Assembly: GCA_964629655.1 (NCBI GenBank) | Contig: CAZVQU010000001.1 | Span: forward strand, 484,056-548,055 | DNA from: an uncultured Planctomycetia bacterium | GTDB lineage: Bacteria; Omnitrophota; Gorgyraeia; Duberdicusellales; 4484-171 | Length of the DNA: 64,000 bases | Direction: 5' to 3' | Part shown: positions 1 to 62,108 of the stretch, in pieces | How positions within the stretch are numbered: the first letter of the stretch is position 1 | Layout: every line of letters starts with the position of its first letter | Position numbers and translations under genes: made by a program | Notes under the pieces: generated by a model | The model's database searches: none | Seen by the model: only the letters and a program-made list of their open reading frames with translations | What the model was told of the DNA's origin: nothing

Positions 1-240
1 GTTCCGCTATGCACTGAAGAGTGCACTATCTCTAAGGATAAGAACTCCTCGTCAGGCAAATCTTCCTTTTTAACTATTCTTTTACCTAATAAATACTGAA
101 TCTTGCCTTTTAGGGTTTTACCAATCAATACCTTATTAAGCTTCTCGACTCCTTGCTTATGAGATGTTCGCTCAATTTCAAGCTTATGAACCTCGAAGGC
201 CTTATCATCAATCGGTAAACTTAAGTCTACTATCTTCATT
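1..240 (-). CDS. Putative cyclase family protein (PF04199-like, kynurenine formamidase-like); only the N-terminal ~80 aa are in the window
   Basis: Minus-strand ATG at 238-240. Translation MKIVDLSLPIDDKAFEVHKLEIERTSHKQG... resembles the N-terminal (I/V)DLSHPI... signature of cyclase/arylformamidase proteins. It lies directly downstream of the ACP gene in the same orientation. Confidence 0.4.
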
Positions 241-257
241 TTATTAACCTTTATGGA

Positions 258-491
258 TTACTGTTTCTTCTTTTCAATTACTCCAACAATTTCATTAAGG
301 GTAGAAAACTTAGTAATCTCATTAGTCTCAATTTTTATACCAAAGTGTTTATTAAAGGTAACTACTAACTCTACCATCTCTGTTGAATCAACACCTATAG
401 AGTCATACAATTTCTGGTCTTCTTTGATCTCGCTTTCTTCTATATCCAAAGTCTTGCTTATAATTCCAAGGACCTCTTCTTTTAAATCCAT
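258..491 (-). CDS. Acyl carrier protein (start at the internal MDLKEE ATG, ~77 aa)
   Basis: Small acidic 4-helix-type sequence. The LYDSIGVDSTEMVELV motif carries the phosphopantetheine Ser in the DS(L/T) position. It sits immediately after the KS/CLF pair. The upstream part of the tracked ORF overlaps the CLF stop, so the internal ATG is preferred. Confidence 0.8.
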   Translation of the reverse strand: MDLKEEVLGIISKTLDIEESEIKEDQKLYDSIGVDSTEMVELVVTFNKHFGIKIETNEITKFSTLNEIVGVIEKKKQ

Positions 492-501
492 AGATACCTC
501 C

Positions 502-1737
502 CTATTCTTTCTCAATAGCCAAAACAACATTTATCCCGCCCCGGCCTCTGGCAATAATCAGGGCTTTATTTATCTTTCTTTGTTTAAGTTTATTTGGTGT
601 GTAATCTAAATCGCAATAAGGATCGCTCATCACCTGGTTAATCGTCGGTATTGCTATTGAGTTTTTCATTGAAAGAAGAGTGACAATTAAATCTAAAGCA
701 CTCTGAGCACCTAATAAATTACCATAGATGCTCTTAGGAGCACTAAGGGTAATATTTTCTATTTCTTTGCCAAATACATTCTTTAAGGCCTTAGTCTCAA
801 GATAATCTCCAACTACAGTCGCCTCGCCATCTAGACAGATATAGTCTATATCTGTCTTATTCCAATCAGCATCCTTTAAGCATTCCTCGATTGCATATTC
901 TAAATCATCTGATTCCGGAGCATATCTTGAATAGTGATAGCCATCAGAGGAAAAGCCTATCCCCCTAATAAATCCGTAAATAGGAACTTCTCTCTTCTTG
1001 GCTTTAGATTCTTTCTCAAGAACCACCATTCCTGAACCCTCACCTAAGACAAAACCATCTCTATCTAAATCATAAGGTTTGTATGCTGTTTTAGGATTAA
1101 GATTGTTTTTTGATAAACTCCCGCAAGTATTTGCGCTCAGCAAAGCATAAGGAGTAATCGGGGCTTCCATCCCACCAGCTAATACAAAATCATTTTTATC
1201 CTGAGCTATTACTTTAGCGCCATACCATAAGCTCAAAGCTGATGAAGCCTTATCGGCAACTATGGTCTTGCTATACCCCTTAAAGCCATAGTATATAGTA
1301 ACCTGACCTTGGGGCGCTGCCGGAAACCAAGCTGAAGCCATATAAGGAGAGATGCCTTCTCTTCCTTCTATATACATATCTCTTAGTTCAGTCTCGGCAA
1401 AGAGCCAGCCACCAATAGCATTACCCATAAACACACCAACTCTATCCTTATCAATTTTCTCTAAATCCATTCCCGAATCCTTTATAGCTTGTTCGCAAGC
1501 AACTAGGGCCATATGAGAAAAAACATCTATCTTCTTAACTAATCTTCCTGAAACATGCGAGTAGTGATCAAGCTCATGGACTTGGCCGGCAATCCGAGAA
1601 GGATAAAGACTAGTGTCAAACCTCTCAATTTCGTCGACAAAAGATTCGCATTTTTTGAGGTTAGCCCAAAAAGTTTCTTTTTTCAATCCACAAGGTGAAA
1701 CTACACCTAGACCGGTTATTGCAACTCTATCACTCAT
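502..1737 (-). CDS. Ketosynthase-like chain-length-factor (KS-beta/CLF-type) protein lacking the catalytic triad
   Basis: Thiolase-fold KS homolog with an N-terminal VAITGLGVVSP. The region that aligns with the KS active-site Cys (TIVADKASSALSLWYGA) has no Cys. Both His motifs are absent (ICLDGEATVVGD and IYGNLLGAQSALD). The stop is 3 nt before the KS start. Confidence 0.75.
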   Translation of the reverse strand: MSDRVAITGLGVVSPCGLKKETFWANLKKCESFVDEIERFDTSLYPSRIAGQVHELDHYSHVSGRLVKKIDVFSHMALVACEQAIKDSGMDLEKIDKDRVGVFMGNAIGGWLFAETELRDMYIEGREGISPYMASAWFPAAPQGQVTIYYGFKGYSKTIVADKASSALSLWYGAKVIAQDKNDFVLAGGMEAPITPYALLSANTCGSLSKNNLNPKTAYKPYDLDRDGFVLGEGSGMVVLEKESKAKKREVPIYGFIRGIGFSSDGYHYSRYAPESDDLEYAIEECLKDADWNKTDIDYICLDGEATVVGDYLETKALKNVFGKEIENITLSAPKSIYGNLLGAQSALDLIVTLLSMKNSIAIPTINQVMSDPYCDLDYTPNKLKQRKINKALIIARGRGGINVVLAIEKE

Positions 1738-1740
1738 TGG

Positions 1741-3012
1741 CTACCTCCACCTCTTAAATACAATAGAAGAATGAATTCCAGAAAACCCACTGCTAGTTTT
1801 AAGTATATATTCCGGTGAAATCTGTCTTTTCTTATTAGGAATATAATCTAGGTCGCACTTAGGATCAGGTTCTTCCTGATTAATGGTTGGCGGAAGATAC
1901 CCTTTCTTAAAAATCATACAACATAATACGCTCTCTACAGCATTAGCAGCTGCTAGGGGATGACCAATCATTGACTTAATCGAACTTATCGGCACCTTAT
2001 AAGCAAAATCTCCTAAAACTTTTTTGTAAGCGTTAGTTTCAAAGGCATCATTCTGCCGGGTAGATGATCCGTGAGCATTTATGTAACCGATATCCTCATT
2101 CTTTATCCCTGAATTCTCTATTGCTTGGCGCATAGAACGAGCCATAGGTTCGCCGTCTTCGGGCAAATCAGTCATATGATAGGCATTGCAACTTGTCCCA
2201 TAGCCGAGGATTTCAGCATAAATATCGGCCCCTCTGGCCTTAGCATGTTCTAATTCCTCTAAAATCAAAATTCCGGCTGCCTCACTAATAACAAAACCAT
2301 TTCGCTTATTATCAAAAGGACGGCTAGCCTTATGAGGTTCATCGTTATTCTTAGCCAAAACGCTTACTACATCAAAAGCTCCAAAGGTAATCGGTGTAAT
2401 TGGTGCTTCAGTTGCTCCAGCAATAACTAGATCTTGTCTTCCCTCTTGAATAAGCTCATAGGCAAAGCCTAAAGAATCGGTTCCGGCAGTACAACCAGTT
2501 GAGACTGTACAATTCATCCCCTTTGCCCCATAAACAGCACCTATCTCAGCGCTGGGAGTATTAAACATAGCCGCATCATAAAGATAGGGACGGCCCTTTC
2601 GGGGATCAATCGGGTTTTTGCCCCAGTCAGTAACTAATAAAAACTCCTCTTCCATAAAACGGGTTCCGCAAATAGCATTTGCTAGGATCACACCGCATCT
2701 GCGCCTGTCTAGTTTATCAAAATCTAGATTGGCGTCTTCTACTGCTCCCTTAGCAGCAGCAATCCCAAATTGAACATACCTATCCATACGTTTATGGTCA
2801 GTTATGCCAAATTTTAAAGGATCGAAATTCAAATCTTGGGAAGCAATCTTTGAAATGAATAAACTTACATCAAAGTTCTCAACCCTTTCAATGCAAGGTT
2901 TACCGTCAACTAGATTGTTATAGAATTCATTCTTTTCTTCTCCGGCCGCAGAGATAACTCCGATTCCAGTAATCACTACTCTCTTCACTTCTCTTTCCTC
3001 CTTAAAATGCAA
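1741..3012 (-). CDS. Beta-ketoacyl-ACP synthase (KAS I/II / KS-alpha-like), catalytically complete
   Basis: Active-site Cys in VSTGCTAGTDSLG, His in NAHGSSTRQND, and the second His in MIGHPLAAANAVES. Start region VVITGIGVISAAG. 423 aa. Confidence 0.85.
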   Translation of the reverse strand: MHFKEEREVKRVVITGIGVISAAGEEKNEFYNNLVDGKPCIERVENFDVSLFISKIASQDLNFDPLKFGITDHKRMDRYVQFGIAAAKGAVEDANLDFDKLDRRRCGVILANAICGTRFMEEEFLLVTDWGKNPIDPRKGRPYLYDAAMFNTPSAEIGAVYGAKGMNCTVSTGCTAGTDSLGFAYELIQEGRQDLVIAGATEAPITPITFGAFDVVSVLAKNNDEPHKASRPFDNKRNGFVISEAAGILILEELEHAKARGADIYAEILGYGTSCNAYHMTDLPEDGEPMARSMRQAIENSGIKNEDIGYINAHGSSTRQNDAFETNAYKKVLGDFAYKVPISSIKSMIGHPLAAANAVESVLCCMIFKKGYLPPTINQEEPDPKCDLDYIPNKKRQISPEYILKTSSGFSGIHSSIVFKRWR

Positions 3013-3021
3013 AAGCTAATC

Positions 3022-3600
3022 TCACTTTCTCGAAACTTTAAAAATAATATTCCCGCCATCGGGACAGGTAACTGTATCGATAGAATTCTGATCGTTCATG
3101 AAGTGAAATTTTGCACCAAAATTTAGGGCAAACAGGGCCGGGAAAGCTGTATGCCAGGCTGCTCCGCAAAACCCAGGAATACACTTTAGGCCTTCGGTTT
3201 CCCACTTATCACCTACTTTATAGTTGTAAAAACACTTACCCTTCGCCTTAACAACTTCAATAACCATTTTTTTCGGATTCGGGCCTTTAAAATCAGGGTC
3301 TTTGCCAACTAGCTCAACCTTACCCTCTTTATTAAAGATCTCAACCTTAAACTCTAACTTCCCCCCGTCAGGACAAGTTACTAACAAAGACCTTTGATTA
3401 TCCATAAAAGGAAATTTTGCTCCAAAACTTAAAGCATAAATTACCGGAAATAATGCATGGGCCAAACCTAAACAAAAGTGTTTAGGTGGATGAGTAAAAT
3501 CCTCTAGAATAAGTTCGTCGCCAGCCTTATAGCCATGATAACAATCTCCATAAACATTAAGCACTGTTAATTTTAATTTTGGGAAAGGTGTTTTAACCAT
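3022..3600 (-). CDS. Tandem duplication of a ~90-aa Cys-containing domain resembling the uncharacterised TIGR04076 family
   Basis: Two internal repeats share GDC(Y/F)..YK.GD, a (H/K).(F)C(L/G)..A....FP block, and TCPDGG.(I/L).FKV. Three Cys per repeat. No other family signature. Confidence 0.45.
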   Translation of the reverse strand: MVKTPFPKLKLTVLNVYGDCYHGYKAGDELILEDFTHPPKHFCLGLAHALFPVIYALSFGAKFPFMDNQRSLLVTCPDGGKLEFKVEIFNKEGKVELVGKDPDFKGPNPKKMVIEVVKAKGKCFYNYKVGDKWETEGLKCIPGFCGAAWHTAFPALFALNFGAKFHFMNDQNSIDTVTCPDGGNIIFKVSRK

Positions 3601-3601
3601 A

Positions 3602-4597
3602 TTACATCTCCATTTCTTTTAATAATTCTCCCCTTTCAAGAAATTTCTTGGACTCCTCTACCCTGTGAACTAGGTCAACTATTTTACTGTTTAGTGGAGA
3701 TTGAAGATTGTTCTCAGAAGCTATTCTCACAATTTCCCCGTTAATATAATCAATCTCCGAGGGCCTACCGCTCTTTATGCTCTGTAATATTGAACCAAAA
3801 AGAGGCTCTTTGCTCAAAGAGGTCATTACTTTTGAAAAAATACCAGAAGCTTCTTCTATGCCCATTGAAACTAGCCCTTCTAATCTGGCTTTGGGGTAAG
3901 TAGGCAAATCGGCTAACTCTATGCCACTACCTTTAGCAACATCAAGGGCTTCTTTGTTTAGCTTTATTGCTAGCTTTGCAAAATTTACATCAGAAAAGGT
4001 CTCTTGCATAGATAAACCTAAAATTGCCGGAATACAATTATTGAGATTGATAAACAGTTTAAGGTATTTAGCCCCTTTTATTTTATCTAGAACTGCTACA
4101 TCAAAAGCAGATTTCAAAAGGCCTTCTACCTCTCTTATATTGACTACTTCTTTATCAAAAATATTGCCTAATATTAAGCTACCTTTAAAATTATGAACGA
4201 TTTTATTCGGTCGATAAAAGGTTGCCCCAAACATCACAATGCCGGTTACAATCTGCCCTTTAGAGAAATACTCACTCAATATATAATCAGCTCTTACTCC
4301 ATTCTGAGTACTAAGAATAGTCGCATCTTTTAAATATTCTAAATTTTCATTTACTAAAACCTCTAGATCGTTTAACTTGCTGGCGAAAATGGCCAAGTCC
4401 ACTCTCTGTTTAAGCTTATTATCAACTCTTACCTTATAGGTATCTTTACCGCTTGGGCCTTCAATCAGCAAGCCATCCTTAAGCAAAGACTCCTTCTGGT
4501 AATCCTTAGCTATACCGAGAACATCAACACTCTTCCCAGAGAGATACCCTAAAAATAATCCGCCAATTGCCCCACAACCTAAGACTGCTACTTTCAT
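3602..4597 (-). CDS. 2-dehydropantoate 2-reductase (ketopantoate reductase, PanE/ApbA) family NAD(P)H-dependent oxidoreductase
   Basis: Rossmann MKVAVLGCGAIGG at the preferred internal start. C-terminal KPR signature GSILQSIKSGRPSEIDYINGEIV. Conserved Lys in GAKYLKLFINL. The tracked ORF extends to 4636, but the ATG at 4595-4597 gives the canonical N-terminus. Confidence 0.8.
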   Translation of the reverse strand: MKVAVLGCGAIGGLFLGYLSGKSVDVLGIAKDYQKESLLKDGLLIEGPSGKDTYKVRVDNKLKQRVDLAIFASKLNDLEVLVNENLEYLKDATILSTQNGVRADYILSEYFSKGQIVTGIVMFGATFYRPNKIVHNFKGSLILGNIFDKEVVNIREVEGLLKSAFDVAVLDKIKGAKYLKLFINLNNCIPAILGLSMQETFSDVNFAKLAIKLNKEALDVAKGSGIELADLPTYPKARLEGLVSMGIEEASGIFSKVMTSLSKEPLFGSILQSIKSGRPSEIDYINGEIVRIASENNLQSPLNSKIVDLVHRVEESKKFLERGELLKEMEM

Positions 4598-4601
4598 TTT
4601 T

Positions 4602-4868
4602 CTACTTCTCTTGGCTAATGTATTGTGAATAATCAATATTTAATTGATTAAGCAGCCTCTGGAGCATATCTTTAAAGGCTGGGGGAACCTCCTGAAAAAA
4701 GGCAACAATTAAATCTTTATCCTCAACCTGTTTAGAATCTCTTGCCTTAGCTAACTCCTCAGACTTCTGCTTAATAAGTTGCTCAGCAATTGTTCTATGG
4801 AATTGCGGTAGATTCTCAACTACTCTATTGAACTTGCTCTTTGTCTCTTGGTTCCAGATAATTTCCAT
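4602..4868 (-). CDS. Small protein with a PCP_red-like domain (protochlorophyllide reductase BchB C-terminal domain family, PF08369-like)
   Basis: Pattern IIW.QE...KFNRVVENLPQFHRTIAEQLIKQKSEELAKAR matches the W..E...(V)..P.F.R...E..A...G layout of PCP_red domains. A strong SD (GAAGGAG) lies 11 nt upstream of the ATG. Confidence 0.4.
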   Translation of the reverse strand: MEIIWNQETKSKFNRVVENLPQFHRTIAEQLIKQKSEELAKARDSKQVEDKDLIVAFFQEVPPAFKDMLQRLLNQLNIDYSQYISQEK

Positions 4869-4886
4869 AATATCTTCCTCTCCTTC

Positions 4887-5621
4887 TTATAATTTATCAA
4901 TAACTGAGAATGCTAAATCAGCCATTTTCATCTCAGCCTCAAAGAATCTATAGTCAGCAAATCCTAATGTCCCGGTAATAAGATTATCGGACACTGCTAA
5001 GACGGCTGCGACTTTTCTTTTGTAGATATTAGCTAGGGTCACGAACGGTGAAGTTACCATATCAACGGCAACCGCACCCTTCTCAATATAAGGATTAACT
5101 ATTTCTTTAGTCTCTCTAAATAAAGCATCAGTTGTCCATACTCCTCCTTGATGCAAGATACCAGCGTTTTTAAAAACATCTTCTATCTTCGATGTCAATT
5201 CGCTGTCTACCTTAGATAGATAATTATCATCTACATAATACTTAGTTGCGCCGTCTCCTCGAATAATATCAGTAGCCAAGATGTAATCTCCAACATTTAT
5301 ATCTTCCCTTAAGGCTCCGCAAGAACCAAGCCTGATTAAAGTGTTGATCCCACCAACACATAAAAACTCAGTAACAAAGGCTGAATCAGGAGCATAAAAT
5401 CCGCCGTTGCCAACAGTCACTTTTTTGCCTTTATAAAACCCTGTCCAGAAAGTATAGCCCAGAAAGGTGAAGTTCTTTACGCAATTCTCTAATTTCTCTA
5501 AGCACATCTTTGCTCTATGCTGCTGGCCGCTAATTAAAGCGATTTCGCCAAAATCGCCATCTTTAAATTGTAAAGAGCCAAGAAGTTCTTTGGGGCTAAG
5601 ATGAATATCTCTTTGCATCAT
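4887..5621 (-). CDS. Purine nucleoside phosphorylase / nucleosidase (PNP_UDP_1 family, DeoD-like)
   Basis: GDFGEIALISGQQHRAK and IRLGSCGAL match the DeoD GDFADVVLMPGDPLRAK and IRVGSCGAV. VAVDMV and VSDNL correspond to the EME and SDH(I) catalytic region. 244 aa. It overlaps the ligase gene by 4 nt. Confidence 0.75.
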   Translation of the reverse strand: MMQRDIHLSPKELLGSLQFKDGDFGEIALISGQQHRAKMCLEKLENCVKNFTFLGYTFWTGFYKGKKVTVGNGGFYAPDSAFVTEFLCVGGINTLIRLGSCGALREDINVGDYILATDIIRGDGATKYYVDDNYLSKVDSELTSKIEDVFKNAGILHQGGVWTTDALFRETKEIVNPYIEKGAVAVDMVTSPFVTLANIYKRKVAAVLAVSDNLITGTLGFADYRFFEAEMKMADLAFSVIDKL

Positions 5622-7126
5622 GATTGATCTCCTGTTTTAAGTTTTCCTTTATCAACCTTCCCGGTTCTATTCTTAGGTAAGTCTTTTACAAATTCAAAGT
5701 GATGTGGAATCTTAAAATGAGCTAAGTGCTCTTTTAGAAAGTCTTTTAACTCCTGCTCACTTAAAGCCTCATCCTCTTTAGAAACTATAAATGCTTTAGG
5801 GACTTCTCCGCGTAAATTATCAGCTACGCCGATAACAGCAACTTCTTTTACCTTAGAATATCTATTTATCTTCTCTTCGACCTCAGCCGAGAAAACTACT
5901 TCACCAGCCACCTTAATCATGTCTCTTTTTCTTCCAACTATATAATGCAAGCCGTCGGAGTCAACTCTGACAATATCCCCGGTCTTAAACCACTTACTTT
6001 CAGTTAGCACCTCTTTAGTCAGACCGGGTTCTTTATAATATTCTCTCATAACCGCTTCGCCCCTGACCCAAAGTTCTCCGTGGAAGCCATTTTCTAACCT
6101 TTTACCAGCTCCATCAACAATTTTTGCCTCGAGATTAAAGTCAAAATAACCAATACTTGATATTTTACTCTCATCGCAAGGAGAAAAAGCATTAGGCGCA
6201 GAGGTTTCGGTCATGCCCCAGCCATTTAAAACTACAGCCTGAGGGCATAATTTGTGGAATCTTTTTAAGAGTATTGGCGATGAAGGTGCGCCAAAAACAA
6301 CTGCATATCTTAACGAAGAAAGGTCAAATTTGTCGTACCCTTTTAAGGAAAGAATAGCCACATACATTGCCGGAACAATGCAGAATATAGTAACTTTATG
6401 TTGTTCTATGTTCCTTAGAAACTCAGAGGGATTAAACCTGCTCATAAGAACAAGTGACGATGAAAAAGTAATCATAAGAAGTATATAGTCTAGCCCGCCA
6501 ACATGCGAGAAAGGAACTCCGCCGCACAAGAAGATATCACCTTCAGATACTCCCAGAAAATGATTAATTGTCTTAGAAGGATTATCAAGGTGTCTATACT
6601 CTAGGCTTACTCCTTTAGGATGACCGGTAGAACCAGAGGTATAAAATACAGCTGCCAAGCTATCTTCCTTATGCTCAAGCGAAGGTTGATCATAACTGCT
6701 CTCTCTTGAAATCACATCCCAAGAAGAAAATTCTCCTTCCCTCTCGGCAAATACAATTATCTCCTTTAAACTTGCACACTCACTCTTAATATTAGCCAAA
6801 TCTATTTTAGAATTGGCAATTAAAACTTTTGCCTGACTATGATTTATAAAATTAATTATCTCATTCTCAGTTAACATAAAATCCAAAGGTACTACTGCTG
6901 CCTCCATACTAAATACACCTAAAAAAGTAAAGATAGCTTCGGGAGTATTGGGTGAGAATATAGCAACTTTATCGCTGCTGTTTACGCCTATCTTAAGAAG
7001 ATAGTTGGCGAGCTTAAATGAAGAGTCCCTAACTTCAGAGAAAGTAATTGCTTTACCCTGAAATAAAATGGCTGATTTTTGAGGATATTTTTCAGCCTGT
7101 TTGGTGAGTAATTCTCTTATATTCAT
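5618..7126 (-). CDS. AMP-dependent synthetase/ligase (fatty-acid or aryl-acid CoA/ACP ligase family)
   Basis: AMP-binding core YTSGSTGHPKGV, GWGMTE, and a C-terminal PKNRTGKVDK-type Lys. First gene of the operon, directly downstream of the promoter. Confidence 0.85.
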   Translation of the reverse strand: MNIRELLTKQAEKYPQKSAILFQGKAITFSEVRDSSFKLANYLLKIGVNSSDKVAIFSPNTPEAIFTFLGVFSMEAAVVPLDFMLTENEIINFINHSQAKVLIANSKIDLANIKSECASLKEIIVFAEREGEFSSWDVISRESSYDQPSLEHKEDSLAAVFYTSGSTGHPKGVSLEYRHLDNPSKTINHFLGVSEGDIFLCGGVPFSHVGGLDYILLMITFSSSLVLMSRFNPSEFLRNIEQHKVTIFCIVPAMYVAILSLKGYDKFDLSSLRYAVVFGAPSSPILLKRFHKLCPQAVVLNGWGMTETSAPNAFSPCDESKISSIGYFDFNLEAKIVDGAGKRLENGFHGELWVRGEAVMREYYKEPGLTKEVLTESKWFKTGDIVRVDSDGLHYIVGRKRDMIKVAGEVVFSAEVEEKINRYSKVKEVAVIGVADNLRGEVPKAFIVSKEDEALSEQELKDFLKEHLAHFKIPHHFEFVKDLPKNRTGKVDKGKLKTGDQS

Positions 7127-14149: not shown

Positions 14150-14227
14150 CTTTTGTTGGTTGATTGGACTCTACGATCTATGATAATTTAAGGGTAAAGC
14201 TAGATACCAAGAAATAAAGATTAGAAG

Positions 14228-15376
14228 TTACAGTTTACTTAAGAATCTCTCTATCCTTACCGCAGCCTCTCTTAAGTTTTCTAGGGAATTAGCATAGGAA
14301 ATTCTTATGTAAGAATCGAACTCTTCACCGAATGCTGTTCCGGGCACTACAGCAACTTTTTCTTGTAGTAATAGTTTCTTAGCAAAATCTAAAGCATTTA
14401 TTTTATATTTCTTTACTGAAGAAAAACAATAGAATGCTCCCTGAGGTTTAACCGTAGAGAGTCCTAAGCGGTTGAACTCCTTAACTATGAAATCCCGTCG
14501 CTTCTGGTATTCTCTTTGCATCTGGCTTACTTCCTTTCTCGCCCCTAGAGCTTCAACTGCAGCAATCTGAGACACAATCGGTCCACAAAGCATTGAATAT
14601 GAGTGTATCTTAGTCATTGCTGAGATAATCTCTTTATCTGCGCAAGCAAAGCCGACTCTAAAACCAGTCATAGCATAGCCCTTAGAGAATCCATTAAGCA
14701 AAATTGTTTTCTTTTTTGCTTTTTTGCTCAGAGAAGAGAATGGAACATGAGCTTTGCCATAGTTTAACTCATCATAAGTCTCATCGCTAATGACAACAAT
14801 GTCTTTCTTGGATAAAATATTCCAAATCTGGCTTAATTCTTTGTGGCTATAGGTTACGCCGGTAGGATTAGAGGGATAATTTAATATTATTGCTTTAGGA
14901 TTTTGTGCAAGCAAGCCCTTAAGTTTCCCAAGATTAATCTTAAAACCCTCTTCTTCCTTGGTTGGCAAATAAAGTACTTTGCCACAACATACCTCGACCA
15001 TAGCCGGATAAGCAACATAATAAGGGGTAACTACGACAACCTTATCACCGGGCTCTAAGATAGCTCTTAAAGCCAAATCCAGACCTTCGCTAACTCCAAC
15101 TGTAATAAGGGTTTCTCCCTCAGGGGCATAGTTTAAAGAATATTTCTTCTCAAGAAGGTTGGTGATACCTTTACGCAGAATAAAAAGGCCCTGGTTAGAG
15201 GTGTAAGATGTCAGTCCCTCCTCTAGGGCAGTAATTGCCTTTTCTCTAATTCTCCAGGGAGTGATGAAGTCAGGTTCACCTACGCCCAGAGAAATAACCT
15301 CGGGCATTCCGAGAACTAAATCAAAGAATTCCCTTATCCCCGAAGGGGGTATTTTTTTTATTCTTTTTGATATCAT
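14228..15376 (-). CDS. Pyridoxal-phosphate-dependent aminotransferase, class I/II (aspartate aminotransferase family)
   Basis: SFSKGYAMTGFRVGF PLP-Lys motif and NPTG motif. 382 aa. Confidence 0.85.
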   Translation of the reverse strand: MISKRIKKIPPSGIREFFDLVLGMPEVISLGVGEPDFITPWRIREKAITALEEGLTSYTSNQGLFILRKGITNLLEKKYSLNYAPEGETLITVGVSEGLDLALRAILEPGDKVVVVTPYYVAYPAMVEVCCGKVLYLPTKEEEGFKINLGKLKGLLAQNPKAIILNYPSNPTGVTYSHKELSQIWNILSKKDIVVISDETYDELNYGKAHVPFSSLSKKAKKKTILLNGFSKGYAMTGFRVGFACADKEIISAMTKIHSYSMLCGPIVSQIAAVEALGARKEVSQMQREYQKRRDFIVKEFNRLGLSTVKPQGAFYCFSSVKKYKINALDFAKKLLLQEKVAVVPGTAFGEEFDSYIRISYANSLENLREAAVRIERFLSKL

Positions 15377-15377
15377 A

Positions 15378-15857
15378 TTAATATGTTATTGGTAATCGCT
15401 GGCTCTTCTCTCCCTTTACTAAGATTACCCCATCCTCTTTGTATTTCTTAAGCATAAAGTGAGTAGCTGTACCTCTCACTGAGCTCAAAGGTGCTAACTT
15501 CTCAGAGACAAAACTTGCCACTGTCTGTATATCCTCTCCGCAAACCTCAAGAAGCAAATCGTAAGTGCCAGAAAGAAGATAGCAACTCTTTACCTCTGGA
15601 AATCTGTAAATTCTCTGAGCGACTAAATCAAAACCGACATCTTTTTGAGGAGCGACCTTAACTTCAATCAAAGCAACTACTCCTTTACTATCAGTCTTCT
15701 GCTTATTTATGATTGTTTTATACTTTACAATTACTCCTTTTTTCTCATAGTTCTTCATTGCTCGTTCGACATCTTTCTTGCTTTTACCAGTTAATTTCTC
15801 TAAATCTTCCAAAGAAATCCTTGCATTGCTCTCCAAAATTTCTAGTACATCATCCAT
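15378..15857 (-). CDS. Lrp/AsnC family transcriptional regulator
   Basis: N-terminal HTH (ILEILESNARISLEDLEKLTG) and a C-terminal RAM/AsnC_trans domain. 2 nt upstream of the aminotransferase gene. Confidence 0.7.
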   Translation of the reverse strand: MDDVLEILESNARISLEDLEKLTGKSKKDVERAMKNYEKKGVIVKYKTIINKQKTDSKGVVALIEVKVAPQKDVGFDLVAQRIYRFPEVKSCYLLSGTYDLLLEVCGEDIQTVASFVSEKLAPLSSVRGTATHFMLKKYKEDGVILVKGEKSQRLPITY

Positions 15858-15953
15858 AACTACCTCCTTCTAATAATTAGCGATATTAATGATTTAATAC
15901 CCCTAATAAATACCTACCTATTTTATCAAAATAACCCTTAAATTCATAGCAAA

Positions 15954-16781
15954 TTAATTGCCTTTGGGTTCTTTTACCTTCAGAATACGGCTTAATTTTA
16001 TGCGTGAGGAGTTTTCTCCCTTACCCTGGAAAAGAAGATAAAAATACCTCCCTTCTTGCAAGATGCGAAGCGGCAGAACTTCTTCCTCTTTCAAGGTATT
16101 ATCTGAAGAAAAATACTTTATTCCTAAAGCTTCCTTCTTTTCTATCGCCGCATTGAGAAAAAGTGTCTTTTTTTCTTCTTTTGATCTAAAAATCTCATTA
16201 TTCAGACCATAGAGAGAGACGAATTCGTCCAATTTTTCTATTCTTTTCTCTTTGAAAATATCAAGGAGCTTTACGAACACTTGAAGAGCAATGGAAGCAT
16301 CGCCTAAAGCCCGATGCAACCCTTGGCTACAATCAATATTGAAAAATTTAGCTGTTGCCTCTAGATTGTATCTGGTCAGCTTAAGAGTATCCCTGGCCAT
16401 GGAGAGAATATCTACTGCTGGTAATTCTAAAGGTGGACGGTTGGATTTCTTTAGATGGTTATTAATAAAACCGACATCAAACTTAATATTGTAAGCACAA
16501 ATTATAGACTCACCCAAGAATGACACAAATTCATCAGCTATATCTTCAAAATAAGGAGCATCTTTTAACTCCTCCTGGGATATCTTATGGACATCGTAAG
16601 CCTGAGCAGGCATATTTCTGTTAGGGTTAATTAAGCTGTGAAACTTATCGATGATTTTTCTCCTCTTAACCTTAAAAGCCCCGATTTCGCATATCGAATC
16701 TCCGGTAACTACGTCTAAGCCGGTAGTTTCTAAATCAAGAACTACTAGATCAAGATCTTCGATATTCTTTGCTAAGTCCAT
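15954..16781 (-). CDS. 3'-5' exonuclease (DnaQ/DEDDh epsilon-like) with a C-terminal extension
   Basis: Exo I DLVVLDLETTG. Exo II/III motifs (YNIKFDVGF and a GLHRALGDA-type H.(A)..D). A ~90-aa C-terminal tail of unknown fold. Confidence 0.7.
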   Translation of the reverse strand: MDLAKNIEDLDLVVLDLETTGLDVVTGDSICEIGAFKVKRRKIIDKFHSLINPNRNMPAQAYDVHKISQEELKDAPYFEDIADEFVSFLGESIICAYNIKFDVGFINNHLKKSNRPPLELPAVDILSMARDTLKLTRYNLEATAKFFNIDCSQGLHRALGDASIALQVFVKLLDIFKEKRIEKLDEFVSLYGLNNEIFRSKEEKKTLFLNAAIEKKEALGIKYFSSDNTLKEEEVLPLRILQEGRYFYLLFQGKGENSSRIKLSRILKVKEPKGN

Positions 16782-32980: not shown

Positions 32981-33067
32981 GCGAGGGTGGCGGAATTGGC
33001 AGACGCACTAGCTTGAGGGGCTAACGGTAGCGATACCGTAGGGGTTCAAGTCCCCTCCCTCGCACCA
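32981..33067 (+). tRNA. tRNA-Leu (anticodon GAG)
   Basis: 87 nt. Acceptor GCGAGGG/CCCTCGC. Anticodon loop TTGAGGG. Long variable arm. T-arm GGTTCAAGTCC. CCA encoded. Confidence 0.85.
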
Positions 33068-45538: not shown

Positions 45539-45613
45539 TGGTGGGCGGTGTAGGATTTGAACCCACGACCCCCTCGGTGTAAACGAGATGCGCTTCCACT
45601 GCGCCAACCGCCC
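45539..45613 (-). tRNA. tRNA-Val (anticodon TAC)
   Basis: Minus-strand 75 nt. Acceptor GGGCGGT/ACCGCCC. Anticodon loop TTTACAC. T-arm GGTTCAAATCC. CCA encoded. Confidence 0.85.
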
Positions 45614-62036: not shown

Positions 62037-62108
62037 TGTCCCCGGCAGGACTCGAACCTGCATTTTTGGCTCCGGAGGCCAACGCTCTATCCGTTGAGCT
62101 ACGGGGAC
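62037..62108 (-). tRNA. tRNA-Arg (anticodon CCG)
   Basis: Minus-strand 72 nt. Acceptor GTCCCCG/CGGGGAC. Anticodon loop CTCCGGA. T-arm GGTTCGAGTCC. CCA not encoded. Confidence 0.85.

Follow-up and report, generated by a model that had tools for sequence, protein, structure and literature searches.

A ketosynthase paralog without the Cys-His-His triad is most probably the chain-length factor of an aromatic type II polyketide synthase of Omnitrophota

Introduction

A conserved Gln at the position of the active-site Cys of ketosynthases (KS) is the hallmark of actinobacterial chain-length factors (CLF, also called KS-beta), and the KSQ-type decarboxylating KS carry Gln at the same position and keep both active-site His. 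Here, we describe a KS paralog that has neither Cys nor Gln nor the two His at these positions. It is encoded in a stretch of 64,000 nucleotides (the window; positions 484,056 to 548,055 of contig CAZVQU010000001.1, assembly GCA_964629655.1) deposited for an uncultured Planctomycetia bacterium and assigned to the Omnitrophota by GTDB. Most probably, the protein is a non-catalytic KS-beta/CLF subunit of an aromatic type II polyketide synthase (PKS) of Omnitrophota.

The closest described systems come from outside the actinobacteria. KrCLF is part of the minimal type II PKS of the "ancient resistomycin clade" from Ktedonobacter racemifer; KrKS and KrCLF were purified from E. coli and sediment as a heterodimer of ~99 kDa in sedimentation velocity analytical ultracentrifugation, and the printed KrCLF sequence reads ...FLSDRASGA / LFAAGSAV / KSAFGNLFG, which gives Arg/Ala/Asn at the triad positions (bioRxiv 10.1101/2020.05.18.102780). 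AntE, the CLF of the anthraquinone PKS of Photorhabdus (6SMO/6SMP), forms a functional heterodimer with AntD and carries Asp at the Cys column, as its authors remarked themselves (PMC6638757). With these precedents, a CLF without Gln and without catalytic His is a known kind of protein. Furthermore, a catalogue from 2023 lists KS-CLF pairs in 14 phyla including Candidatus Omnitrophica and describes the pairing of a type II KS with a KS that resembles those of fatty acid synthases (FAS) as common and unexplored in non-actinobacteria (PMC10132072). The statement in the initial annotation of the window that such a protein is unusual outside actinomycete type II PKS and aryl-polyene systems was, therefore, too strong.

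Results

Loss of the catalytic triad

The paralog and the KS encoded next to it are located as follows:

502–1737, minus strand: KS-beta/CLF-like paralog, 411 aa, intact open reading frame (ORF)
1741–3012, minus strand: catalytic KS (KS-alpha type), 423 aa as listed, with Cys174, His314, His351 and Lys346

In the public annotation the paralog is described only as "beta-ketoacyl-ACP synthase family protein". Both KS domains are complete (PF00109 at 1.8e-43 and PF02801 at 1.9e-24, Pfam), and BLASTP aligned the paralog with the adjoining KS over the full length with 32% identity (E = 1e-74) and with the triad motifs paired. The motif strings on which the initial annotation was built were all found in the two proteins: TIVADKASS (at residue 158), LDGEAT (302) and YGNLLG (338) of the paralog stand against VSTGCTAG (170), AHGSST (313) and IGHPL (349) of the KS. 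Three independent alignments were made: BLASTP against the neighbouring KS, phmmer against the FabF of Listeria (3O04), and MAFFT with four KS/CLF pairs (two from Streptomyces plasmids, annotated as "ketosynthase chain-length factor", one from Azospirillum and one from a Bacillus plasmid) together with E. coli FabF. In all of them, the paralog has Lys163, Asp303 and Asn340 where Cys163, His303 and His340 (FabF numbering) would be expected. Thus, Cys and both His are gone, as had been read from the sequence before, but Lys335 is kept.

A Cys or Gln at the active-site position, which the initial annotation had considered as the counter-case, was not seen at the nucleophile column in any alignment. 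It had also remarked that the Gln of CLFs was not obvious, and this Gln is absent: the paralog has Lys and a third of its orthologues have Arg. One might still assume a classical Gln-type decarboxylating CLF whose Gln is hidden by a misalignment, for which the general homology to CLFs is the only argument. This is ruled out at the level of the sequence, since BLASTP, phmmer, MAFFT and the comparison with KrCLF, four independent alignments, put Lys at the Cys/Gln column with an acidic residue before it, no Gln is present within three residues on either side of this column and both His are missing. When compared with the KSQ type, the paralog has Lys/Asp/Asn and not Gln together with both His. 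Because Gln and both His are missing, decarboxylative priming of the Gln type by the CLF is unlikely.

Placement among chain-length factors

The states at the former active-site positions in the two Streptomyces CLFs aligned and in the paralog are:

Cys163 column: E-Q or D-Q in the Streptomyces CLFs, D-K (...VADKASS) in the paralog
His303 region: ADG (Asp at 303) in the Streptomyces CLFs, LDG (Asp at 303) in the paralog
His340 region: GR (Arg at 340) in the Streptomyces CLFs, GN (Asn at 340) in the paralog
Phe400 region: ARGRHG or ARGHGG in the Streptomyces CLFs, ARGRGG (residues 396–401) in the paralog

The hallmark Gln is thus found in both Streptomyces CLFs, whereas the Omnitrophota family has Lys or Arg. 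When derived states were scored at columns conserved in at least eight of nine KS/FabF sequences, the members of the paralog family had Tyr219, Asp303, Asp349 and Arg/His399 in common with the CLFs of Streptomyces, and position 162 is acidic in both. These shared derived residues favour a common origin. The act CLF (1TQY chain B) was matched by phmmer with an E value of 2.9e-57, at only ~30% identity; it and the Streptomyces CLFs have the KS fold, the acidic residue before the former Cys and Asp at the position of His303 in common with the paralog, and Tyr219, Asp349, the ARG(R/H) motif and an alignable interface helix are likewise shared with the Streptomyces CLFs. In contrast, Gln161 of the act CLF is replaced by Lys/Arg in the paralog, and position 340 is Asn instead of Arg.

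Among the non-actinobacterial CLFs, KrCLF shows 36% identity in a full-length alignment with the paralog (E = 6e-97). It carries Asp-Arg where the paralog has Asp-Lys, both have Asn in place of the second His and lack a catalytic His, and the GGW..A...L gate pattern, AWFPAA, ARG.GG and an adjoining KS-alpha gene are shared as well; KrCLF differs in having Ala, not Asp, at the first His position and in coming from a member of the Chloroflexota. AntE, also non-actinobacterial and Gln-less, shares the motifs GGW.h.E.E and ATAWFPAA.QGQ, but has Asp at the Cys column and only 371 aa with a divergent C-terminal third, whereas the paralog has 411 aa and a complete C-terminal domain. AntD, the partner of AntE, is the best solved match of the window KS (6SMO_B, 4e-109), followed by the act KS-alpha (1TQY_A, 1.5e-107), and both rank slightly above the FabFs. 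A CoA-ligase-like enzyme, a ketoreductase, a cyclase and an aromatase also take part in the ant pathway.

Among 1.84 billion representatives, a search revealed a broad set of KS-like proteins that consist of a single domain and carry Asp-Arg/Lys at this column; named members are from Clostridium beijerinckii/puniceum (P0130), Ktedonobacter racemifer (P0153) and Archangium (P0167), and P0121, which is 56% identical to the paralog, comes from metagenome-assembled genomes (MAGs) labelled Deltaproteobacteria. Natural KS-CLF fusions exist as well, and the second domain of one of them (P0129) has D-R. The CLF P0130, which, judging from the organism names only, is probably that of the clostrubin PKS, is 40% identical to the paralog, has Asp-Arg at the Cys column and an acidic residue at 303 and comes from an anaerobe, but has kept the second His. 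In a neighbour-joining tree with 200 bootstraps, the paralog grouped with P0121, P0126, P0254 and the CLFs of Clostridium, Ktedonobacter and Bacillus, the latter from a plasmid-encoded type II PKS, with 100% support, and the KS grouped with the KS-alpha of Bacillus, Azospirillum and Streptomyces with 94% support. As judged from sequence, the paralog belongs to a non-actinobacterial CLF clade in which Arg/Lys replaces the actinobacterial Gln. The CLF-like character proposed in the initial annotation is, therefore, supported by the neighbouring KS and ACP (acyl carrier protein) genes, the KS-alpha affinity of the KS, the derived residues and the fully supported clade.

Conservation in Omnitrophota

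A search of 5.8 billion proteins yielded at least 120 clusters of homologues with 70–94% identity to the paralog, and every named cluster among these matches is from Candidatus Omnitrophota/Omnitrophica. In a scan of one genome per GTDB species the gene was found in ~55 Omnitrophota species; three of these genomes are complete chromosomes of 1.27, 1.52 and 1.82 Mb. In the family alignment of 121 sequences, 107 of the 411 positions are invariant. Asp162 and Lys335 are present in all sequences, Asp303 and Asn340 in 120 each, and position 163 is Lys in 79 and Arg in 42. The dN/dS of the paralog was 0.05–0.07 against six close orthologues, and that of the KS was the same in the three valid comparisons; the KS values for L052, L007 and L008 (pN ~0.7) were due to a wrong codon registration and were disregarded. 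Across the 55 species, the CLF has a mean identity of 78% and the KS one of 81%; if a DeoC homologue that was detected in two loci only is left aside, no other gene of the cluster is conserved as well. The paralog is under strong purifying selection.

The loss of all three catalytic residues would also be expected for a decaying or frameshifted KS pseudogene, which the initial annotation had put forward as an alternative. This alternative was ruled out and has next to no probability: the ORF is intact and of full length, the protein is conserved across species in the homologues described above with its replacements fixed in the 121-member family, dN/dS is ~0.06, both Pfam domains are complete and an AlphaFold2 model of the paralog (pLDDT 75, predicted TM-score (pTM) 0.84) spans the whole KS fold with a TM-score of ~0.9 to FabF.

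Some contigs with the cluster carry other taxonomic labels. The full Omnitrophota cluster, with a paralog that is 87% identical, was found in a MAG labelled Methanosarcinales archaeon (L010, JAIWAR010000044.1), and many other cluster contigs (L006, L009, L013, L014 and others) are labelled "uncultured Planctomycetia". The archaeal and planctomycetal labels are probably binning or labelling errors. The Methanosarcinales case could also reflect a physical association; an Omnitrophota species is said to attack Methanosaeta.

An aromatic type II PKS gene cluster

The gene order was determined by tblastn synteny over 55 loci, and the part of the cluster beyond the left edge of the window was read from orthologous loci with 79–94% identity. 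The cluster has a size of ~16 kb, and its order is nearly invariant across the 55 loci:

Genes 1–5: AMP-ligase, PNP_UDP_1 protein, DUF2621 protein, ApbA-like reductase, tandem TIGR04076 protein
Genes 6–9: KS, CLF, ACP, PF04199 cyclase
Genes 10–13: SRPBCC protein, major facilitator superfamily (MFS) transporter, short-chain dehydrogenase/reductase (SDR), B12-binding radical-SAM enzyme
Genes 14–17: Amidohydro_2 protein, aminotransferase IV (some loci), IF-2B/MtnA-like protein(s), class II aldolase

The order KS-CLF-ACP was found in 54 orthologous loci out of 55, and the contig of the last one breaks off within the cluster. The SRPBCC protein of the orthologous loci matches TcmN/WhiE aromatase/cyclases (2e-27), and neither a FabZ/FabA dehydratase nor an enoyl reductase was found in the Pfam gene lists of three loci. 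Because the cluster encodes a TcmN/WhiE-type aromatase/cyclase and a PF04199 cyclase but no dehydratase or enoyl reductase, it is, by its gene content, an aromatic type II PKS and not a FAS or aryl-polyene cluster. The product could not be predicted further from the SDR, which is not specifically ActKR-like, or from the PF04199 cyclase, which has no close solved relative.

Aryl-polyene (ApeO/ApeC) clusters contain FabZ/FabA dehydratases, a FabG-type ketoreductase and lipid-export/acyltransferase genes and lead to a non-cyclised polyene. By gene content, and with no direct comparison with ApeC, an aryl-polyene system was rejected, since the gene lists of the three loci contain no dehydratase family and aromatic cyclases are found instead.

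A function of the KS pair in a fatty-acid or lipid pathway, either as a duplicated KS of a FAS or in a cluster of the type called "ladderane" by antiSMASH, has several points in its favour. FabFs are the best matches of the paralog in sequence and fold: it is 34% identical to E. coli FabF, the TM-scores are 0.87–0.90, the residue numbering is the same and Lys335 is shared. The top NCBIfam model of the paralog is fabF (TIGR03150), many non-actinobacterial "CLFs" are classed as type II FAS by NaPDoS2 (PMC10132072) and ladderane-type biosynthetic gene clusters were called in Omnitrophota MAGs (PMC9902471). However, the paralog and the KS reach only 368.1 and 455 bits with the fabF model, below its trusted cut-off of 493.75, and, unlike FabF, the paralog has neither the Cys-His-His triad nor the Phe400 gate and is encoded in a polyketide cluster. 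The conserved aromatase/cyclase and PF04199 cyclase, the missing dehydratase and enoyl reductase and the grouping of the KS with the KS-alpha of proven aromatic PKSs also argue against a lipid pathway, which we regard as quite improbable.

The cluster is not entirely uniform. Two esterase-like genes are inserted between KS and CLF in one locus (L011, 7847–9978) and one between CLF and ACP in another (L018, 11122–12237); they encode signal-peptide-bearing alpha/beta-hydrolases of ~350 aa which are esterase/depolymerase-like and contain GxSNGG. In a locus from a Deltaproteobacteria-labelled MAG (L083), with a CLF of 56% identity, the core is the same, but the B12 radical-SAM gene is located upstream of the KS gene, and no SDR was found in the stretch read. 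The locus contains in addition genes for two aldehyde:ferredoxin oxidoreductases (4851–6824 and 14177–16156) and a FAD-dependent oxidase, which hints at a strictly anaerobic tailoring chemistry, as well as PNP, IF-2B and aldolase-SCP2 genes. Indeed, a PNP_UDP_1 protein, one or two IF-2B/MtnA-like isomerases and a class II aldolase-SCP2 fusion are co-conserved with the PKS (window, 4887–5621; L001, 17883–20275; L083, 18447–21242). The trio resembles the "DHAP shunt" (DHAP, dihydroxyacetone phosphate) for 5'-deoxyadenosine and methylthioadenosine, and it could recycle the by-product of the B12 radical-SAM enzyme or feed a precursor.

Genes in the window around the paralog

The other genes of the cluster that lie in the window are:

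1–239, minus strand: PF04199 "putative cyclase", first 79 codons, cut by the window edge
258–491, minus strand: ACP, 77 aa, with a DS(T) phosphopantetheine site
3022–3600, minus strand: tandem TIGR04076-domain protein, 192 aa, Cys-rich, with two TIGR04076 domains
3602–4597, minus strand: ApbA/PanE-family NAD(P)-dependent reductase, likely starting with MKVAVLG
4602–4868, minus strand: DUF2621 protein, 88 aa
4887–5621, minus strand: PNP_UDP_1-family nucleoside phosphorylase/nucleosidase
5618–7126, minus strand: AMP-forming acyl-CoA/acyl-ACP ligase, head of the conserved gene block

The paralog gene lies 3 nt downstream of the KS gene, and the ACP gene follows 10 nt downstream of the paralog gene. 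The listed starts of the ACP, the ApbA-like reductase and the KS are longer than in the orthologues (77, 331 and 415 aa). The listed ACP start at 530, which overlaps the paralog gene, is probably too far upstream, and the true start is probably the ATG at 491, which sits behind a GGAGG site. The listed TTG start of the ApbA-like gene (4636) overlaps the upstream gene. Since the KS orthologues have 415 aa, the true KS start probably lies a few codons inside the listed TTG at 3012 (window 2988–3012).

The partial cyclase is 76% identical to a PF04199 protein of 266 aa encoded in L001. The tandem TIGR04076 gene is located directly upstream of the KS gene in those orthologous loci whose contigs reach there, and likewise in L083 (8029–8619). 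In L011, a single ORF of 536 aa (4904–6514) combines it with the ApbA-like reductase, suggesting that the two proteins work together. The AMP-ligase may provide the starter unit or load the ACP. Of RNA genes, only three tRNAs were found in the window, Leu-GAG (32981–33067), Val-TAC (45539–45613) and Arg-CCG (62037–62108); no riboswitch or other Rfam family was found near the cluster in the window.

Discussion

A model for the function of the paralog can be derived from the described systems. By analogy to act KS-CLF, AntDE and KrKS-CLF, the paralog would form a 1:1 heterodimer with the KS encoded upstream, in which the KS would carry out every decarboxylative condensation on malonyl-ACP, while the paralog would supply half of the dimer interface and close the end of the acyl tunnel, thereby helping to set the chain length. 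Such a pairing is supported indirectly by an invariant interface segment of the paralog, by the KrKS-CLF heterodimer and by the natural KS-CLF fusions. The putative tunnel cap, as predicted from the alignment, comprises Trp111, Ala114 and Leu118 of an invariant segment (GNAxGGWLFAETELRD, residues 105–120). These residues align with Phe110/Thr113/Phe117 of the Streptomyces CLF, which correspond to the gate residues Phe109/Thr112/Phe116 of the act CLF, as reportedly numbered by Tang et al. in 2003 and Keatinge-Clay et al. in 2004, and the same Trp-Ala-Leu trio is found in the CLFs of Ktedonobacter and Bacillus (MAFFT).

The former active-site pocket would be filled by a charged cluster of Asp162, Lys/Arg163, Asp303, Asn340 and Lys335, in which the basic residue at 163 probably pairs with Asp303. 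In the MAFFT alignment, position 303 is acidic in 13 CLFs, and each of these has a basic counterpart, either at 163 (non-actinobacterial type) or at 340 (Streptomyces type). This pattern points to an ion pair that would be buried in the pocket and plug it. Priming likely falls to the KS or to the co-conserved AMP-ligase, for which AntG, proposed to load the ACP (PMC6638757), may be a parallel.

Could the charged pocket have an enzymatic function of its own? A neo-functionalised enzyme might act on a carboxylate or on acyl- or malonyl-ACP, in a heterodimer or a homodimer, possibly as a priming decarboxylase of a non-Gln type, as an acyltransferase or as a helper in cyclisation or hydrolysis. 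The replacements are specific and fixed in 121 sequences, unlike random decay, the positive charge at 163 (Lys or Arg) is held across several phyla, Lys335 of the catalytic apparatus of KS is kept and the paralog is constrained nearly as much as the catalytic KS. On the other hand, there is neither a nucleophile nor a His to polarise the thioester; Schiff-base chemistry is excluded, since Lys and Arg are interchangeable, and position 303 is Asp, Glu, His, Ala or Asn in the relatives, leaving no fixed catalytic constellation. Constraints on the interface and the tunnel would explain the high conservation equally well. Furthermore, in the crystal structure of act KS-CLF by Keatinge-Clay et al. 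from 2004 the CLF pocket is reportedly buried, which also counts against an enzymatic function. We consider a neo-functionalised enzyme unlikely and a non-catalytic CLF as the most probable function of the paralog.

Several observations weigh against this assignment. With phmmer, the paralog scores higher against FabF (276 bits) than against the act CLF (197 bits), and Foldseek against the PDB ranks FabFs first with TM-scores of ~0.9, a comparison that does not discriminate between CLF and FabF. The node that unites the basic CLFs with the Gln-containing CLFs of Streptomyces had less than 20% support, and with such deep nodes monophyly of all CLFs cannot be claimed from the neighbour-joining tree. 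The ion pair of Asp303 is not universal in the clade, since KrCLF has Ala303, and tight translational coupling is not universal either, since esterase-like genes split the core in some genomes. Finally, the AlphaFold2 model is of moderate quality, with pLDDT below 50 in residues 109–140 and 195–224, which are the interface and cap regions; the low values would fit a need for the partner, but could just as well result from a shallow alignment.

CLFs without Gln and KS-CLF pairs of Omnitrophica are already on record, and nothing is overturned by the data presented here; with the Omnitrophica pairs in the 2023 catalogue (PMC10132072), the paralog is a member of a catalogued non-actinobacterial group. 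Literature searches found nothing on ketosynthases in Omnitrophota and no comment on Arg/Lys at the former Cys position of CLFs. What can be added is a signature for non-actinobacterial CLFs, consisting of an acidic residue followed by Arg/Lys at the former Cys, Tyr219, Asp349, AWFP and ARG.GG. This is of practical use, since tools trained on Streptomyces misclassify such CLFs as FAS enzymes. Solubility is a bottleneck in the engineering of type II PKSs, and FabF-like KS-CLF pairs tend to be expressed solubly in E. coli.

Recognition of the CLF identifies a type II aromatic polyketide cluster in ~55 species of Omnitrophota, for which, to our knowledge, there are neither cultured producers nor known natural products. 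A tentative extension, to which we give a small chance only, is that the cluster does not serve as an accessory antibiotic pathway but encodes a vertically inherited, lineage-wide aromatic polyketide pathway with a core role, in which the basic residue of the CLF is functional and the accessory genes supply or recycle a starter or by-product. If this were true, these anaerobes, which are small and often depend on a host, could for instance use the product as a quinone-like redox carrier or as a pigment or lipid of their envelope. The basic residue at the former Cys position could, for instance, bind a carboxylate or the ACP or control how the AMP-ligase primes the chain, and it would mark a mechanistically distinct class of "basic" CLFs. 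An unusual starter unit or a by-product of the radical-SAM enzyme would be supplied or recycled by the proteins of the TIGR04076, ApbA-like, PNP, MtnA-like and class II aldolase genes.

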